This document shows, piece after piece, positions 2,792 to 63,022 of a stretch of 63,527 nt of DNA (its first letter is position 1; every line of letters begins with the position of its first letter). Under the pieces are notes generated by a model. It had not been told where the DNA came from and did not search any database. It saw only the letters and a program-made list of their open reading frames with translations. The position numbers were made by a program, and so were the translations under genes. The DNA is from an uncultured Mycoplasmatota bacterium (GTDB taxonomy: Bacteria; Bacillota_I; Bacilli_A; RF39; UBA660): assembly GCA_947166445.1 (NCBI GenBank), contig CAMVED010000005.1, positions 1 through 63,527 of the forward strand. The letters run 5' to 3'.

Positions 2792-3271
2792 TTACAATTC
2801 ATACCCTAGCCTTTCTAACTCTAGTATAGTTATTAAGGATAAGTTTTCTTTTTTTAATTCTTTTATGCTATAAAATGATGCTCCAAGTGAATCATCGTTT
2901 TGTTTATCAATTTTTACTTCTTCTTTTATATTTCCTTCATGTTTTGTTACTTTATAAAATATTCCTATATGATGTACTTTTATTAAAGTATTATTATAGT
3001 TCCAATCTGCTATAACTGAATTTGCATCATATAACTCATATTCTGTAGGTGTTACTCCTGTTTCTTCTTTCAGTTCTCTTACTAAAGTTTCTTTTGGTGT
3101 TTCTCCAAACTCAAATGATCCTCCGGGAAGATCTAGCTTTCCATCGTATGGTCCAGTTACTTTTTTTATTAAAAGTATTTTATCATCTTTTATAACTATT
3201 CCATATACTCCAATATGTGTATGGGCTTTTATTTTGTTTCCATTCTTATCAATTATTTCTTTTATATTCAT
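2792..3271 (-). CDS. Nudix hydrolase
   Basis: Nudix box GGSFEFGETPKETLVRELKEETG. Confidence 0.9.
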   Translation of the reverse strand: MNIKEIIDKNGNKIKAHTHIGVYGIVIKDDKILLIKKVTGPYDGKLDLPGGSFEFGETPKETLVRELKEETGVTPTEYELYDANSVIADWNYNNTLIKVHHIGIFYKVTKHEGNIKEEVKIDKQNDDSLGASFYSIKELKKENLSLITILELERLGYEL

Positions 3272-3770
3272 TTAATACCTCCAACATTTCTTCTACTATG
3301 ATTTTGTTTATTGGATTATCTGGAATACTATTTATTAATACTTGTTCTATATTATCCAAATTGATGTACTCTATTTTATAATTTCCTTTTGTTTCCCAAT
3401 CATCTAGATTAGCATTATTCATATTAGCTTTTTCGTCTGTTTTTATAGAAAAATAATATATTTCATTTTTTCTATTTAATCCTGTATCTCTATAATTTTT
3501 ACTATAATATGTAATTTTTTCAAATGCTTTTAGATTAGTATTTTTTATATCTATTCCCGTTTCTTCTTTTACTTCTCTTTTTAAACCTTCTTCAAGTGTT
3601 TCGTTTTCTTCAAGATGACCTCCAGGAAATTGATATGTTTTGTGACAATATCCAAGAGCTATTTCATTTTTGCTATTTATTAACAATGCCTTTACTCTTA
3701 TTACTGTTTCATCTATATCATTTTCTTTTAGGTTATCATGATTATAAACTATTTTTTTCATAAAATTCAT
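3249..3770 (-). CDS. Nudix hydrolase
   Basis: Nudix box GGHLEENETLEEGLKREVKEETG. Confidence 0.9.
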   Translation of the reverse strand: MNFMKKIVYNHDNLKENDIDETVIRVKALLINSKNEIALGYCHKTYQFPGGHLEENETLEEGLKREVKEETGIDIKNTNLKAFEKITYYSKNYRDTGLNRKNEIYYFSIKTDEKANMNNANLDDWETKGNYKIEYINLDNIEQVLINSIPDNPINKIIVEEMLEVLNEYKRNN

Positions 3771-4293
3771 CTTTTAATATATCCATTTTTATATCATCAT
3801 ATCTTTTTCCGTTATGAAATTTTGCTTCTCTAATTCTTCCTGCTTCTTTAAATCCTACTTTTTTATAACATGCAATTGCTTGTTCATTAAATGAATAAAC
3901 TCCTAAATACATGTTGTGAAGGTTTAATGTATTAAATCCATAGTCAAGAAGCATTCTAAGTGTTTCTTGTCCATATCCTTTTCCTCTTACTGATTCTTCT
4001 CCAATTAATATTCCTACTTCCGCGGTCTGATTTATTTGATTAATATTCATAATTGAACAAGTGCCTATTAAAGTATCATTTTCTTTTGTTACTATACTGA
4101 AACAATGATCACCTTTCTTCGTTACTTCTTGAAGATATTCTATTTCATTTTCAAGTGTTGTGACATCTTTTGTTTTTCCTATTCCATCTGTTACTCTATA
4201 ATCATTTAACCATTTTGTATAGATTGGTGCATCTTCTAGCATCATAGGTCCTAAATATATATTTTCACTCTCTAGTTTTTTAAAATACTTCAT
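3742..4293 (-). CDS. GNAT N-acetyltransferase (RimJ/RimL/SpeG-like)
   Basis: RGKGYG acetyl-CoA motif, NEQAIACYKKVGF. Confidence 0.85.
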   Translation of the reverse strand: MKYFKKLESENIYLGPMMLEDAPIYTKWLNDYRVTDGIGKTKDVTTLENEIEYLQEVTKKGDHCFSIVTKENDTLIGTCSIMNINQINQTAEVGILIGEESVRGKGYGQETLRMLLDYGFNTLNLHNMYLGVYSFNEQAIACYKKVGFKEAGRIREAKFHNGKRYDDIKMDILKDEFYEKNSL

Positions 4294-4310
4294 AATTTTA
4301 CCTCCTTATT

Positions 4311-4919
4311 TTAGTTGTTAACACTTTTTGTTATAAATTCTATTACATCATCTTCATTTACTTTTATTAGTTCCTTATCTTCTTCAGTTATTTCTGTAAA
4401 GTATTTATCTAAATTCTTATATTTCGATATTGAATTTAAAGGATAACCTTTATTTATCTTATCTGATGGCTTTTCTACCATATAAAAGTTTTCTTTACTC
4501 CATGTATAAGTACTTTCTTCACCTTTTTGGTTGATAACTGCTAAACCATATACCCACTTACAATCTAGTTTTCCATTTGTTCCATATTGTTTTACTAAAC
4601 CTGTATAATGCTTTATCATTTCTTCGTCTGTTAGAGTTTTGCCATTTACTCTTCTTACATATAATCCTGGTTGTTTATCTTCTGGGACACCTTCCAAATA
4701 TAAAGTGTCATCCATTCCCATAACAGGCATGTGTGTTTCATTATAATATGCTCTTGCTTTTATAAGAGCGTTTTCTATTGCAGTTTTACCATTTTCGTTA
4801 ACGTCTATGTTTATATTTAAATCTTTTAATGATAATAGTTCAATATCATTTTCTAATAATCCTTGTTTAAAACGATTTAATTTACTTTGATTACTTGTCG
4901 CAAATAATAGTTTTTTCAT
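4311..4919 (-). CDS. Ham1/ITPase family non-canonical purine NTP pyrophosphatase
   Basis: FATSNQSK N-terminus, ENGKTAIENALIKA, DDTL, PGLYVRR motifs. Confidence 0.8.
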   Translation of the reverse strand: MKKLLFATSNQSKLNRFKQGLLENDIELLSLKDLNINIDVNENGKTAIENALIKARAYYNETHMPVMGMDDTLYLEGVPEDKQPGLYVRRVNGKTLTDEEMIKHYTGLVKQYGTNGKLDCKWVYGLAVINQKGEESTYTWSKENFYMVEKPSDKINKGYPLNSISKYKNLDKYFTEITEEDKELIKVNEDDVIEFITKSVNN

Positions 4920-32420: not shown

Positions 32421-33734
32421 TTAAAGTTTTAATTTTCTTGATGGCCCTCTATATATAAAGTTTGTATCCATAATATTATCTATTTCTAAAGTTTTCATAA
32501 GTACTCTAGATAGTCCAAGGCCATAACCACCATGTGGTGGACATCCATACTTGAATAGTTCTAAATATGCTTTTAATTCATCTGGATTAATTCCTTTTTC
32601 AAGTACTTGATTTAATAATTTGTCATAGTTATGTTCCCTTAATGCACCAGTTGTTATTTCTAGACCGCGATATAATAAATCATAGCTCTTAGTATTACCA
32701 TTTTCATCTACCTGTTGATAGAATGCTCTTGATTCAAACGGAAATCCTTCTATAAATATAAAATCTGATTTAAAACATTCCAATGCATATTTGCCTAATA
32801 ATAATTCTTCTTTCCTATCAAAATCTGTTTTTCTTTCTCCAACATAATTGTATCTATTCTTTAATATTTGTTTAGCTTCAAAAAAAGTTATTCTTGGTAT
32901 AGTTGCATCTATATTAACCAATTTACTATTAAAATCATTTTTTATCATGTTGCCATATTTACTATTGAGCTTTTCAAAGCCATATTTCAAAAATTCTTCT
33001 TCAAAGTCTTCAATTTTTGAAATATTTTCTATCCATGATATTTCTACATCACACATATTAATTTCTGAAGCATGATAACTTGTATTTGATTTTTCGGCTC
33101 TGAAAGCTGGACCAATTTCAAATACTTTGTCAAATCCTGATGCCATTGCCATTTGTTTATAGAATTGCGGACTTTGTGCTAATGCTGCTTCTTGTCCAAA
33201 AAAATCTATTTTAAATACTTCACTACCGCTTTCTGCAGCTTTGGCAGTTATTTTTGGTGAATGTAATTCTATGAAATCATTTTTTATACAATACTGTCTA
33301 AGAGCATTTTCAAAATATGTTTCGATTTGGAATAATTTATAATTTTTCTCAGATCGCAAATCTAGATTTCTATAATCATGTCTAACACTTCTGCTTATAT
33401 TTTTTTCTTTATAATTTAATGGTAACTCCTCGGCTATTGATGTTACATTTATTTTAGTTGGAATAATTTCCATTCCATTTAGTTTTACATTTGGAGCTTC
33501 ATTTAATACACCTTCAATATTTACTGTACTATCAAGTGATAATGTTTTTACTGTTTCATTTAATTCCTTATTATTATCGTTTTTTTCAATGGTAACTTGT
33601 ACTTTTCCGGTATGATCTCTTAGTATCAAAAATTGAACATATTTCAAATCCTTTATATTATCTACAAAACCTGATACAGTAATTTTTTTATCTTTATATT
33701 TATTTAATTCATTCATGTATATTTTATTATTCAT
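32421..33734 (-). CDS. Divergent short-type (archaeal/AspRS2-like) aspartyl-tRNA synthetase paralog
   Basis: OB-fold LRDHTGKVQ, AQSPQFYKQ, FRAEKSNTSYH, GALREH, YGCPPHGGYGLGLSR. Confidence 0.85.
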   Translation of the reverse strand: MNNKIYMNELNKYKDKKITVSGFVDNIKDLKYVQFLILRDHTGKVQVTIEKNDNNKELNETVKTLSLDSTVNIEGVLNEAPNVKLNGMEIIPTKINVTSIAEELPLNYKEKNISRSVRHDYRNLDLRSEKNYKLFQIETYFENALRQYCIKNDFIELHSPKITAKAAESGSEVFKIDFFGQEAALAQSPQFYKQMAMASGFDKVFEIGPAFRAEKSNTSYHASEINMCDVEISWIENISKIEDFEEEFLKYGFEKLNSKYGNMIKNDFNSKLVNIDATIPRITFFEAKQILKNRYNYVGERKTDFDRKEELLLGKYALECFKSDFIFIEGFPFESRAFYQQVDENGNTKSYDLLYRGLEITTGALREHNYDKLLNQVLEKGINPDELKAYLELFKYGCPPHGGYGLGLSRVLMKTLEIDNIMDTNFIYRGPSRKLKL

Positions 33735-58499: not shown

Positions 58500-59069
58500 T
58501 TATTTTTTTTGATCATAACCTTTTTTCTTGTAGTCTTCATATAACTCTCTAAACAAATTAAAGTGTACTATTTCTCTTTGTCTTAACCATAGAAGTGGTC
58601 CGATTACGTCTGGATCATCTGTTAAATCAATAAGGTTTTCGTAGACTGCTCTTGCTTTTTGTTCTGCTGCCATATCTTCCATAATATCTGCTACAGGGTC
58701 TCCAGTTGTAGATATATATGTTATTGTAAATGGAACACCATTAGCATCTGTTGGATAAAGAGCTGTATTATGTTCTGCATAATGTCCTTCCCATCCTGCA
58801 GCTTTCATTTCTTCAGGTGTTGCATCTTTTGTTAATTGATAGATGATGCTACTTACCATTTCAACGTGGTTAAGTTCTTCAGTACCTATATCTGTTAAAA
58901 GAGCTCTACCCTTTTCATCTGGCATTGTATATCTTTGATTTAAATATCTTAAAGCTGCTGCAAGTTCACCTTGACTACCTCCATATTGAGTAACTATTAT
59001 TTTTGCAAGTTTAGGATTTTTCTTTTTTATGTTTATAGGATATTGTAAAGATTTTTCATATTTCCACAT
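58500..59069 (-). CDS. cotJC: Manganese catalase family spore coat protein CotJC
   Basis: QYGGSQGEL, DIGTEELNHVE, EDMAAEQKAR, LRQREIVH. Confidence 0.92.
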   Translation of the reverse strand: MWKYEKSLQYPINIKKKNPKLAKIIVTQYGGSQGELAAALRYLNQRYTMPDEKGRALLTDIGTEELNHVEMVSSIIYQLTKDATPEEMKAAGWEGHYAEHNTALYPTDANGVPFTITYISTTGDPVADIMEDMAAEQKARAVYENLIDLTDDPDVIGPLLWLRQREIVHFNLFRELYEDYKKKGYDQKK

Positions 59070-59581
59070 TATCTATTTCCCTCCCATGGCCATTTTTTTG
59101 TATCCCATGCCCAAGGCGTAGCTTCTAGCATTACACTATTTTGGGTAATTGGACCAAAACTATTTTCATATTGTGCTAGAGCTTCATTATACATTCTTAT
59201 ATATTCAGCTCTTTGTCTAATAGCATTTGTATCATTTGGATTTACATCTAGATATAGTCCTAAATCATGGGCAGCAAATCCATACATTTGCATTAATAGC
59301 ATCGCATACTCTTTATCGTTTGTAGGATTTAGTTCTTGAGGTCTATAGTTTTTATATTCATCATATAAATTGTCAAACATATTCCCTCTTGTGAATCCTT
59401 GATAAGGTTCTGCTAAACCATTATTTTTGTTTGTACTACTACTCTTCTTGACTTTATTTTGATTATTATTCATCATTTGATTGGGATTTATCATTTGGTT
59501 TAGATTCATCATTTCATTGCTGTTAGGCATTTGATTTAGATTATTAATATAACTGTAATAATCCATATAGTCATTCATCAT
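59069..59581 (-). CDS. CotJA-CotJB fusion-like spore coat protein with N/Q/M-rich N-terminus
   Basis: PYQGFTRGNMFDNLY (CotJA-like) followed by FAAHDLGLYLDVNP...FGPI...PWAW..WPWE (CotJB). Confidence 0.75.
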   Translation of the reverse strand: MMNDYMDYYSYINNLNQMPNSNEMMNLNQMINPNQMMNNNQNKVKKSSSTNKNNGLAEPYQGFTRGNMFDNLYDEYKNYRPQELNPTNDKEYAMLLMQMYGFAAHDLGLYLDVNPNDTNAIRQRAEYIRMYNEALAQYENSFGPITQNSVMLEATPWAWDTKKWPWEGNR

Positions 59582-60284: not shown

Positions 60285-60791
60285 ATGTATTTGTTTTTTA
60301 TGATTAGTGGTTATTTATTTGTAGTAGGACTTTCAATAGTATTTAATTTCTTATTTGAACTATTTCCTATAAATAAATTGACTAAATTTTTATCTCCTTT
60401 GGAAAAAACTACTTTTAATAAGATTAATATTATAATTATTCCTAATATTTTATGGTCTTTAATAGAAATTGTTATTTTAGGTAATAATAAGTTTTTTATA
60501 CTTGGTTTTATACTTAATGTATTTATAAGTATGTGTGTTATGTATGTAATTAAATTTGGATATGATTTAATTGCTAATAGAGAGAGTAATATTGTTAATG
60601 TAGTTGCTATTTTCTTTTCATGTTTTTTTGGATTTTTTTGTAACTATATATGCTTATTAATTGGTGTTAATAAACAAATTAATACTTTATACTCTATTGT
60701 TGGGATATTGGTTTTAATAGGATTTTACTTTATTATTAGATTGTATCCTCCGAAAAGTGAGTTTTTTAGAGGAAACATAATAGAAAAATAA
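60285..60791 (+). CDS. Hypothetical membrane protein
   Basis: About 5 TM segments; SD AGGGG. Confidence 0.6.
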   Translation: MYLFFMISGYLFVVGLSIVFNFLFELFPINKLTKFLSPLEKTTFNKINIIIIPNILWSLIEIVILGNNKFFILGFILNVFISMCVMYVIKFGYDLIANRESNIVNVVAIFFSCFFGFFCNYICLLIGVNKQINTLYSIVGILVLIGFYFIIRLYPPKSEFFRGNIIEK

Positions 60792-60814
60792 AAAAGTTTC
60801 AAATGAAACTTTTT

Positions 60815-62758
60815 TTATTTATTTTCTAAAATATAATATTTTTTCTTTCCTCTTCTTATAAGGTTTAGTTTTCTATTATTGTTTATTTGCATGTTTTCAT
60901 CTTTTACTACTTCACCATTTAGAGTAATAGCTCCTGCTGTAAGAAATTCTCTTGCTTCTCTTCTTGATGATGCAATTTTATTATTTGTTAGTATATCTTC
61001 TTTATTAAAATTAAATCTTTCAATATCTTTTAGGGAATCTATTTGTTCATCTGTTAAATCTTTAACATTTCCTGAAAATAGTGCTTCAGAGATCATTATT
61101 GCCTCTTCTAAGGCTTCTTTTCCATGTAGGAATGTAATTACCTCTTCTGCGATTTTTCTTTGTGCTAGGCGCTTTTCTGGGGCTTTATTATGTTCTTCCA
61201 TAATAGATTCTATTTCTTCTTTTGATAGGAATGTATATTTCTTTATGTATTCTTCTACCATTACATCTTCAAAGTTTAATAAGTATTGATACATTTCATA
61301 TGGACTAGTCTTTTCTCTGTCTAGCCATAAAGCATTACCATAACTCTTTCCTAACTTTTTACCCGTTGAATCTGTTAACAATGGTACAGAGAAAGCATAT
61401 ACTTCATCACCATCTAGCTTTCTGATTAATTCAATACCTGTAGTTAAGTTACCCCATTGGTCAGAGCCACCAAACTGCAAATCTACGCCATAATTATCAT
61501 GTAAGTATTTGAAATCATATCCTTGCATTAACATGTATGAAAACTCTGCATATGATATTCCTACTTCCATTTGTCTTTTAACAAGGTCTTTGTTAATCAT
61601 ATATGATACGTTTATTGCCTTACCTACATCTCTTAAAAATTGTACATAGTTATAGTCTTTGAACCATTCATGATTATCAACTACTTTTGTTTCTTCTCCG
61701 AAAAGTTTTTTCATTTGGGCTTTAATTTTTTGGAAGTTGTGTTCTACTTCTTCAATTGCTCTTTTTTCTCTTTCACCAGTACCACGTGGATCTCCAACAC
61801 GTCCTGTGGCACCTCCGACTAAGATTATTGGATTGTGTCCACCTCTTCTTAGACGTTCTGCTACTAGGAATGTTGGGAATTGTCCAATATGAAGAGAATC
61901 TGCAGAAGGGTCTGCTCCAATATAGAAAGTAAGTCCTCCAGCATTTAATTTTTCTTCTAAGTCACTTCCTGCTTCATCTTTAATTAATCCGCGCCATTTT
62001 AAATCATCATATAGTTTCATTTCTTTGTCTCCTTTTTCTTTATTTTCTTTATTATTTTGATCCCATGTAAACTCTTGGTGATCACTATCAACGATGCCAG
62101 ATTCTATTTCTACATCGTAGTTTTCTTTTAAAAAGTTTATCATTTCTTTTTGAAGTTTTAATACTTCTTTTTTGTTTTCTTCAAAACCATCAATTGGAAT
62201 AAATAGATTAGTACTTTCTTCAGTAATCTTACTTTTTTCACCTTGTCTCCATGTCCATTTTCTTGTTTTCACTTCACCTCCTGATACATAAACATATTCA
62301 TTTTCTTCAGGATGTTCTACTTCTCCTCCTCCGAAAGGAGTGAATGTATCTGTTTCTTTTCCTTTTCTAATTTCTATATCACCTTTGAAATTATCAATGT
62401 CATGCACTCCAATAGGTAATCTATATTTTACTGATAAAGCATTACCTAAGTCTACAATTGGATTAATACTTGGTAAGTCTTTTCCTTTGCTAAGTCTTGT
62501 AAGAAGTGCTTCGATTGAACACATATATTTATTTGGGTTAATATCTATAGCTTTAAATGCTTCACGATATGGAGTTATATATGGTTCTTCTTTTACTTTT
62601 ACATCTTTAAGTTTTTCTAAAGCTTCTTGCATGTTTTCAGATAACATGTTTTTAATTTTATCATTTTCTTCTTTATTATCAAAGTTTTTAACAATAATAA
62701 CTCCAAAATATGCATTAGGTACTTTTTCAAAAAAATCTTTACTTACTTTAAATTTCAT
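60815..62758 (-). CDS. tyrS: B3/4 (PheRS-beta editing-like) domain fused in frame to tyrosine--tRNA ligase
   Basis: N-terminal SIEALLTRL..LPSINPIVD; TyrRS YIGADPSADSLHIGQ, QFGGSDQWGN, KLGKS, S4 domain; internal SD+ATG at 62020. Confidence 0.9.
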   Translation of the reverse strand: MKFKVSKDFFEKVPNAYFGVIIVKNFDNKEENDKIKNMLSENMQEALEKLKDVKVKEEPYITPYREAFKAIDINPNKYMCSIEALLTRLSKGKDLPSINPIVDLGNALSVKYRLPIGVHDIDNFKGDIEIRKGKETDTFTPFGGGEVEHPEENEYVYVSGGEVKTRKWTWRQGEKSKITEESTNLFIPIDGFEENKKEVLKLQKEMINFLKENYDVEIESGIVDSDHQEFTWDQNNKENKEKGDKEMKLYDDLKWRGLIKDEAGSDLEEKLNAGGLTFYIGADPSADSLHIGQFPTFLVAERLRRGGHNPIILVGGATGRVGDPRGTGEREKRAIEEVEHNFQKIKAQMKKLFGEETKVVDNHEWFKDYNYVQFLRDVGKAINVSYMINKDLVKRQMEVGISYAEFSYMLMQGYDFKYLHDNYGVDLQFGGSDQWGNLTTGIELIRKLDGDEVYAFSVPLLTDSTGKKLGKSYGNALWLDREKTSPYEMYQYLLNFEDVMVEEYIKKYTFLSKEEIESIMEEHNKAPEKRLAQRKIAEEVITFLHGKEALEEAIMISEALFSGNVKDLTDEQIDSLKDIERFNFNKEDILTNNKIASSRREAREFLTAGAITLNGEVVKDENMQINNNRKLNLIRRGKKKYYILENK

Positions 62759-62786: not shown

Positions 62787-62975
62787 AAAAAAGTTCATAA
62801 ATTAAAGGACGAGCATTACCCGTGGTACCACCTTAATTTATGAACTTGTTCATACACTTTAAACTATATCGCGTTACCGTTTTAAACTCATGACTTGTAA
62901 TTCATATTACTTTTTGTTAAGTTTCACCAAACCTTAACTCTCTTTTAAATTTGTAATACTACTCTGAGTCAGTCT
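62787..62975 (-). promoter_or_regulatory. T-box riboswitch, tyrosine specifier
   Basis: AGAGAG..GGTGAAA stem I, GAAU-UAC-A specifier (Tyr), T-box AAGGTGGTACCACG, terminator AAGTTCATAAATTAA...TTAATTTATGAACTT-TTT. Confidence 0.88.
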
Positions 62976-62993
62976 CTGTTTAATTACAAGCAT

Positions 62994-63022
62994 ATTCTAG
63001 CATTTTTTTAATTTATTGTCAA
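62994..63022 (-). promoter_or_regulatory. SigmaA promoter of the tyrS T-box leader
   Basis: TTGACA-17 nt-TAGAAT with extended TG. Confidence 0.75.

Follow-up and report, generated by a model that had tools for sequence, protein, structure and literature searches.

The stretch of DNA analysed here, hereafter called the window, covers 63,527 nucleotides of contig CAMVED010000005.1 (assembly GCA_947166445.1) from an uncultured Mycoplasmatota bacterium and carries an unusual gene for tyrosyl-tRNA synthetase (TyrRS). TyrRS is the classic editing-free synthetase, and no known form of it, as far as we are aware, is equipped with an editing domain. At 60815–62758 on the minus strand, a single open frame of 647 amino acids joins an N-terminal domain, assigned below to the CtdA family of aminoacyl-tRNA deacylases, to a complete TyrRS, and the gene stands under a tyrosine-specific T-box (Table 1). 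The original prediction, made by a model from the letters of the window, had described this fusion frame and its leader, and the open reading frame, the Pfam and RF00230 matches and the UAC specifier bear it out. On the 647-residue protein, Pfam places B3_4 at residues 64–207 (E 2e-29), tRNA-synt_1b at 276–561 (E 9e-67) and SYY_C/S4 at 587–643 (PF22421, PF01479). The AlphaFold2 model of the fusion (mean pLDDT 90, with 87–98 in the N-terminal domain) resolves into two well-folded modules with a disordered tether between them.

Table 1. Features of the TyrRS fusion locus in the window
Feature	Position	Strand	Basis
Sigma-70-like promoter, TTGACA-17-TAGAAT with TG	62994–63022	-	Consensus match only, 11/12 positions
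Tyr-specific T-box leader	62802–62985	-	RF00230, 107 bits (gathering threshold 93)
T-box sequence GGUGGUACCACGG	62820–62832	-	Within the Tyr T-box leader
T-box terminator stem	62809–62823	-	Terminator scan
CtdA-family (stand-alone-type B3/4) aminoacyl-tRNA deacylase-like domain, residues 1–233	62060–62758	-	Pfam, PDB sequence match, Foldseek
Lys/Glu/Asn-rich disordered linker, residues 234–246	62021–62059	-	Direct reading, pLDDT
Complete type-1 bacterial TyrRS, residues 247–647	60818–62020	-	TIGR00234, Pfam, Foldseek
A/T-flanked hairpin	60786–60814		Direct reading; too AT-rich for the terminator scan

The promoter-like site lies just 5' of the T-box and is the best match of its kind in the region, and 5S and 23S rRNA genes are found 5' of the leader. 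The specifier loop reads GAA-U-UAC-A at 62894–62903, with the Tyr codon UAC at 62897–62899 followed by a purine; UAC-A is invariant across all eight related leaders that were aligned. The stop codon of the fusion gene occupies 60815–60817. The hairpin beyond it, between the convergent tyrS fusion and a membrane-protein gene (60285–60791), is probably a bidirectional terminator.

The TyrRS part comprises a catalytic domain, an anticodon-binding region and a C-terminal S4-like domain. It scores 349 bits against the NCBIfam tyrS model TIGR00234 (cut-off 113.8), covering model positions 4–404 of 406, and matches the G. stearothermophilus enzyme 2ts1 with an E value of 8e-109. Foldseek gives TM scores of 0.87–0.90 to the TyrRS of E. 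coli, S. aureus and G. stearothermophilus. Moreover, the tyrosine-binding residues Y34, Y169, Q173 and D176 are identical in the 2ts1 alignment, the equivalent of H45 is also kept, and a KLGKS loop is present at residues 468–472 (61343–61357). At residues 290–293 (61880–61891) the signature reads HIGQ instead of HIGH, as had been noticed earlier, with Gln in place of His48 of the G. stearothermophilus enzyme. HIGQ occurs in 119 of the 119 closest TyrRS homologues, of which 106 are unfused. Being common to 106 ordinary stand-alone enzymes, it appears compatible with function and unrelated to the fusion. The idea that HIGQ marks decay or accompanies the fusion was rejected, as all 119 share it and the fused clade lies within that of the HIGQ enzymes. 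In P0021 (602 aa), also a TyrRS, a segment of about 190 residues is directly duplicated within the protein, which reflects either a genuine tandem duplication or faulty assembly. In one HIGQ-type relative, the Tyr T-box and tyrS are separated by a gene of the CYTH type (class IV adenylate cyclase-like; L032:2459-3004). No TyrRS other than the fused one was found in the source genome of the window (G000), a 53%-complete metagenome-assembled genome (MAG), or in the rumen MAG RUG14322 (G002; 95% complete).

The CtdA family has been known only since 2023, and studies of it have covered only the canavanine-specific members. The better known B3/4 editing domain of the beta subunit of phenylalanyl-tRNA synthetase (PheRS) hydrolyses Tyr- and meta-Tyr-tRNA-Phe, and the N-terminal domain had originally been taken for a domain of that PheRS type. 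However, the match to PheRS beta reaches only E 4e-5, whereas CtdA is matched with E values of 6.6e-18 (PDB 9f7e) and 2.9e-15 (9mkl). Foldseek aligns the domain with 9f7e_A at a TM score of 0.81 over 232 columns and with 9mkl_H at 0.82 over 231 columns, which spans the whole of CtdA (about 230 residues). Because the domain is closer to CtdA by sequence than to PheRS beta and matches the CtdA fold over its full length, it is assigned to the CtdA family. Additionally, three helices of the model (33–50, 62–70 and 81–90) fall inside the span of the CtdA-specific helical insert, which comprises residues 28–92 of CtdA (PMC12449066). With CtdA the much closer relative and the PheRS editing residues absent, the PheRS-type assignment was discarded.

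In CtdA, the pocket has been mapped by mutagenesis to N105, G116, E118, C166, Q173 and I189 (PMC12449066; bioRxiv 10.1101/2024.11.30.626143). N105, G116 and Q173 (S. enterica numbering) are needed for activity (PMC12449066), while E118 and E191 bind the guanidinium moiety and specificity is tuned through C166 (PMC12449066; bioRxiv 10.1101/2024.11.30.626143). The pocket of the window domain consists of G105, N106, G117, H119, T165, T169, Q172, P188 and D190. The residues required for activity are kept (N105 as N106, G116 as G117, Q173 as Q172), the acidic residue 191 is represented by D190, and N106, G117 and Q172 are near-invariant in 150 relatives. The residues that bind and select canavanine, however, are swapped (E118 to H119, C166 to T165), and further changes affect Y104 (G105), N170 (T169) and I189 (P188). 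The alignment points to an intact catalytic scaffold around a rebuilt side-chain pocket. A CtdA-2 group with about 20% identity, in which C166 is not kept, has been described with its specificity left open (PMC12449066); the window domain may correspond to this uncharacterised group.

The fusion is not confined to one genome. G002 (92% identity) and the metagenome contigs L029 (92%) and L030 (82%) carry the same in-frame fusion. Thirteen full-length protein clusters (648–652 aa) and one more that is cut off by a contig end, drawn from ENA, Logan and NCBI, show it at 80–95% identity. Overall, fused forms are conserved down to about 75–80% identity. If the fusion were an artefact of sequencing or assembly, or a stop loss that happened very recently and without selection in a single genome, this would be in keeping with the CAA codon of Gln234, which is one change from TAA, and with the incompleteness of the source MAG; assembly error had been named at the outset as one finding that would overturn the prediction. 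The chance of such an artefact or recent loss is close to negligible. Since the same open frame recurs in four independent assemblies and 14 clusters, with linker indels in frame and divergence of up to about 20–25%, the fusion is neither an assembly error nor recent on the scale of the clade.

The junction between the modules reads ...GAG TTT ACA TGG GAT CAA AAT AAT AAA GAA AAT AAA GAA AAA GGA GAC AAA GAA ATG. As originally described, an A-rich linker leads to AAGGAG (62029–62034), 8 nt 5' of an in-frame ATG (62018–62020) that encodes Met247, the first residue of MKLYDDLKWRG. The linker has about 13 residues, with pLDDT below 50 only at residues 235–244. Among 15 fused relatives it has 10–14 residues of varied sequence, is always in frame and contains no stops. 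Methionine at the start of the TyrRS part is kept in 15 of 15 close fused proteins, and in all four fused DNA loci the ATG is preceded, at a distance of 7–9 nt, by a Shine-Dalgarno (SD)-like motif (AAGGAG, or GGAGG in L030). Older type-2 TyrRS fusions have no Met at the equivalent position. The Lys, Glu and Gly codons of the linker are purine-rich anyway, and the promoter scan found no internal promoter for the TyrRS part above background. Most simply, the linker may be read as the translated former SD spacer of tyrS. An origin of the fusion by stop loss between adjacent genes is plausible because the linker has the look of such a translated, SD-containing spacer. The earlier suggestion of a stop loss may hold as to origin, but its supposed recency is not supported, as the fused frame is kept across at least 14 clusters with every linker indel in frame. 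There is about a one in three chance that the retained SD and ATG also yield free TyrRS.

The host bacteria are Bacilli of the rumen and omasum whose genomes measure about 1 Mb, and the history of the locus can be followed within their genus. The usual arrangement there is 23S-5S-Tyr T-box-tyrS with a canonical HIGH enzyme. The G000 leader is 85–90% identical to the leaders of G002 and of G007, a goat omasum MAG of the same genus, 74–78% identical to same-genus tyrS leaders, but shares only 58–61% with those in front of HIGQ-type tyrS genes elsewhere; by this comparison it is native to the genus. The TyrRS part, on the other hand, is only 57–62% identical to the HIGH-type enzyme of the genus. 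In the TyrRS tree, the fused TyrRS parts form one clade (support 97) nested in the HIGQ clade (99), and their sister group consists of unfused 405-aa enzymes (P0015–P0020) at 85% identity. HIGQ accordingly predates the fusion. A native leader combined with a non-native HIGQ TyrRS leads to the conclusion that the deacylase and the HIGQ tyrS replaced the native coding region behind the native T-box. Genes for CotJA-like and CotJC/manganese-catalase-like proteins, which are associated with the spore coat, adjoin the tyrS locus (window 59069–59581 on the minus strand and neighbours), and this synteny is kept across the genus.

G007 shows a third arrangement. At the same place, its Tyr T-box is followed by a stand-alone deacylase gene of 233 aa (81% identity) that ends ...EFEWQ-stop and runs straight into the shared terminator, the equivalent hairpin lying directly 3' of the gene, with no tyrS after it. 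TyrRS is encoded elsewhere in G007 by a tandem pair of type-2 tyrS genes, of which one has a T-box of its own. These genes (L026, G007:C14:64500-70500; positions 1647–2915 and 3202–4398) are 49% identical to each other and flanked by radical-SAM and CYTH/CyaB-like genes; the T-box at 2972–3161 serves the second, and a CYTH gene also lies 3' of this T-box-controlled tyrS. Of the bootstrap trees for the domain, 98% group G007 with the fused forms, within their clade (delta lnL 5.7), a placement that is favoured but not significant in the approximately unbiased (AU) test (p = 0.08). The deacylase-only locus most likely reflects a secondary loss of the TyrRS half. In the comparison of fused and split relatives that had been proposed from the start, the fused form recurs in at least 14 clusters and one relative is deacylase-only. 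The two-gene split form was not found; the contigs encoding P0015–P0020 were not recovered in the genome and metagenome scans. That the deacylase of G007 is the single full-length stand-alone protein with at least 75% identity argues against a common split form. A single genus thus offers a natural series of plain T-box-tyrS, T-box-deacylase-TyrRS fusion, and T-box-deacylase alone with TyrRS genes elsewhere.

The strongest clue to function comes from the wider family. An exhaustive HMMER search of 1.84 billion representative proteins returned 2932 matches, and the analysis was made on the best 150. Of these, 116 stand alone with a length of about 230 aa; in 16 the domain is joined N-terminally to TyrRS, in 11 to ArgRS, and in one each to class I LysRS and a class II Lys/Asn/Asp-type enzyme. 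The pair H119 and T165 (H/T type) is found in 16 of 17 TyrRS-fused domains, the window's included, and in none of the 11 ArgRS-fused ones, which instead have E119 (10/11), C165 (7/11) and N169 (11/11) as in true CtdA. Fisher's test for pocket against partner gives p 6e-7, which is overstated as the sequences are related. A tree of 133 domains gathers every ArgRS fusion in a single E/D-C-N clade, whereas the TyrRS fusions are scattered through the H/T part with 12 label changes, at least six of them forced by well-supported branches. The TyrRS partners in other lineages are type-2 enzymes, 24–27% identical to the type-1 enzyme of the window, whose fusion clade is the only one seen on type-1 TyrRS among the fusions examined. 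TyrRS fusions thus arose several times, and the one in the window was an independent event on a different TyrRS family. Several metagenomic type-2 TyrRS fused to H/T-type domains (P0153, P0172, P0156, P0152 and P0279) have HIGR or HVGR instead of HIGH. A word-based search also brought up a fusion of MerR, GyrI-like and B3/4 domains (P0278, 506 aa) and a LysRS-AlaX-like fusion, P0281 (1021 aa), which combines B3/4, class I LysRS and an AlaRS-type/tRNA_SAD editing region.

Because fusion is both recurrent and partner-specific, the H/T-type domains are predicted to act on tRNA-Tyr, and this pattern is the main argument for such a role. It has to be weighed against a catalytically idle appendage, in which the domain would serve as a tRNA-binding or affinity module, as other domains added to synthetases do, or as a scaffold. 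The flexible tether would suit such a role, the same domain family is found on four different synthetases, and the mode of tRNA recognition by CtdA is not known (PMC12449066). Nevertheless, the residues for CtdA hydrolysis (N106, G117, Q172 and the acidic residue 190) hardly vary among the fused forms, the pocket co-varies with the amino acid of the partner, which a plain tRNA handle would not need, and hundreds of stand-alone H/T-type genes exist. An idle appendage is consequently an unlikely explanation. It is still less probable that the domain remains a canavanyl-tRNA-Arg or broad deacylase that was joined to tyrS by neutral read-through and is merely co-expressed with it. Such an origin would agree with a linker resembling a translated intergenic spacer and with CtdA as the closest known family, and rumen bacteria presumably meet canavanine from legumes. 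On the other hand, both canavanine contacts are swapped (H for E118, T for C166), and Y104 and N170 are replaced too; the true CtdA signature pairs with ArgRS and never with TyrRS; and H/T-type fusions recur on two unrelated TyrRS types. Furthermore, the H/T-type domain is not the sole family member in G007, which has a second, divergent CtdA-like gene (31% identity). The frame of this second gene is G007:C17:32915-33667, with a Pfam match at 33104–33496 in a 241-aa open frame; a wider protein match at this locus crossed stop codons.

From the observed architecture, fold, conserved residues, pocket-partner correlation and T-box control, we infer a hydrolytic activity with tRNA-Tyr as carrier and a tyrosine analogue as target. 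The gene product, the only TyrRS of its host, would then edit in cis tRNA-Tyr charged with a tyrosine analogue, a reading to which we give a probability of about 0.6. The original prediction had likewise proposed cis proofreading against non-protein tyrosine analogues, and with the pocket-partner correlation and the T-box this is retained as the best reading. Transcription is controlled by the T-box, which senses tRNA-Tyr. In the proposed mechanism, the TyrRS part would occasionally attach a non-cognate amino acid that resembles tyrosine to tRNA-Tyr. The tethered domain would capture the 3' end of the mischarged tRNA-Tyr and hydrolyse the ester bond by means of the conserved CtdA catalytic core (N106, G117, Q172 and D190). 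The pocket formed by G105, H119, T165 and T169, derived from the canavanine form with Y104, E118, C166 and N170, would select the analogue and spare tyrosine. The link to the Tyr T-box outlasts the probable loss of the TyrRS half, since the deacylase gene of G007 is intact under its leader. Candidate substrates in the rumen include L-DOPA, meta-tyrosine, mimosine and ring-substituted tyrosines, all of them conjectural; of these, the forage-derived analogues L-DOPA, meta-tyrosine and mimosine are plausible.

D-Tyr is a less likely substrate than these analogues because DTD is present. A chiral proofreader that removes D-Tyr from tRNA-Tyr deserves attention, as charging of D-Tyr by TyrRS is a classic fidelity problem and the H/T pocket could perhaps fit a tyrosyl ring. 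However, canonical DTD (TIGR00256, about 186–195 bits) is found in G000, G002 and G007 and in 14 of 17 genomes of the genus, and the B3/4 fold is not known to select chirality, all of which makes such a role improbable. The presence of DTD in G000, G002 and G007 also eliminates the domain as a stand-in for missing DTD. Likewise, compensation for a PheRS without B3/4 is excluded by the pheT genes of G002 and G007, which do encode it. The PheRS beta B3/4 regions of G002 (C16:22153-22671) and G007 (C17:43422-43940) score 179–186 bits, compared with 230–235 in three other genomes of the same genus; the lower scores may reflect phylogeny.

Several points weigh against editing of tRNA-Tyr in cis. 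TyrRS discriminates phenylalanine very well, and with DTD handling D-Tyr, the need for editing rests on a further analogue. The fusion partners are not statistically independent samples. CtdA mutants made PheRS-like gained no activity on meta-Tyr (PMC12449066). In addition, the T-box before the stand-alone gene of G007 may be a leftover from a deletion. Outside the genus but in the same family, the four closest stand-alone H/T-type genes examined have no T-box within 1.5 kb, for three of them at a relaxed threshold too, and no adjacent tyrS. More generally, no T-box or riboswitch control of stand-alone H/T-type genes was detected at the gathering threshold in seven family loci, and none even at a relaxed threshold at the loci in G291, G195 and G330.

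A broader proposal can be made more tentatively, with rather less than an even chance of being right. The H/T branch as a whole may be an unrecognised proofreading system for tRNA-Tyr, with hundreds of stand-alone genes and at least six independent fusions, that clears tyrosine analogues; in this rumen clade, the retained internal SD and ATG would also let a single T-box-controlled mRNA yield both the editing and the plain TyrRS. This proposal extends to gut and rumen Bacilli and their relatives, to two unrelated TyrRS types and to analogues of plant or microbial origin. The fusion pattern yields a prediction for the orphan branch of the CtdA family, namely that its substrate is a tyrosine-like amino acid on tRNA-Tyr, because H/T pockets pair with TyrRS of two types and E/C pockets with ArgRS. 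If the broader proposal is true, the textbook editing-free TyrRS would gain an editing function, and exposure to plant amino-acid analogues in the rumen would be a possible selective force. A full-text literature search found no mention of CtdA fusions or of a link between CtdA and TyrRS, including in PMC10018355, PMC12449066 and bioRxiv 10.1101/2024.11.30.626143. The window adds a case from rumen Bacilli in which the fusion arose independently on a type-1 TyrRS under T-box control, together with the plain, fused and deacylase-only loci of one genus, the retained SD and Met, and the table of pocket against partner.

Set beside known systems, the window domain most resembles CtdA of P. canavaninivorans (9f7e) and S. 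enterica (9mkl), its closest sequence relatives, with which it shares the fold and the required residues (PMC10018355, PMC12449066). Unlike the free-standing CtdA, however, it is fused to a synthetase, and its gene is under a Tyr T-box, whereas guanidine riboswitches have been reported for some CtdA genes (PMC10018355). It also lacks E118, C166, Y104 and N170 of CtdA proper, the E/C/N signature being present in the ArgRS-fused members instead. With the B3/4 domain of PheRS beta it has in common the Pfam family PF03483, the B3/B4 core fold, the conserved Asn (N254 in E. coli, N106 here) and the position as a cis-acting domain of a synthetase. By contrast, the E. coli positions H265, F267 and G318 correspond to G117, H119 and Q172, as derived from the sequence alignment to CtdA and the CtdA-PheRS equivalences of PMC12449066; moreover, the inserts differ and the fusion partner is TyrRS. 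The CtdA-type domains on ArgRS, class I LysRS and the class II Lys/Asn/Asp-type enzyme are alike in their N-terminal placement on a synthetase without a known editing domain, but they keep the CtdA-type pocket (E/D119, C165 and N169) and form a separate clade. Finally, the TyrRS part resembles the bacterial type-1 enzymes of G. stearothermophilus, S. aureus and E. coli in its catalytic domain (about 47% identity), its KFGKS-type loop, its S4-like C-terminal domain and its T-box control, as in Bacillota tyrS. It differs from them in an extra N-terminal extension of 246 residues and in the Gln that replaces the second His of HIGH, the HIGQ form being the signature of a whole clade of 119 sequences from uncultured Bacilli.

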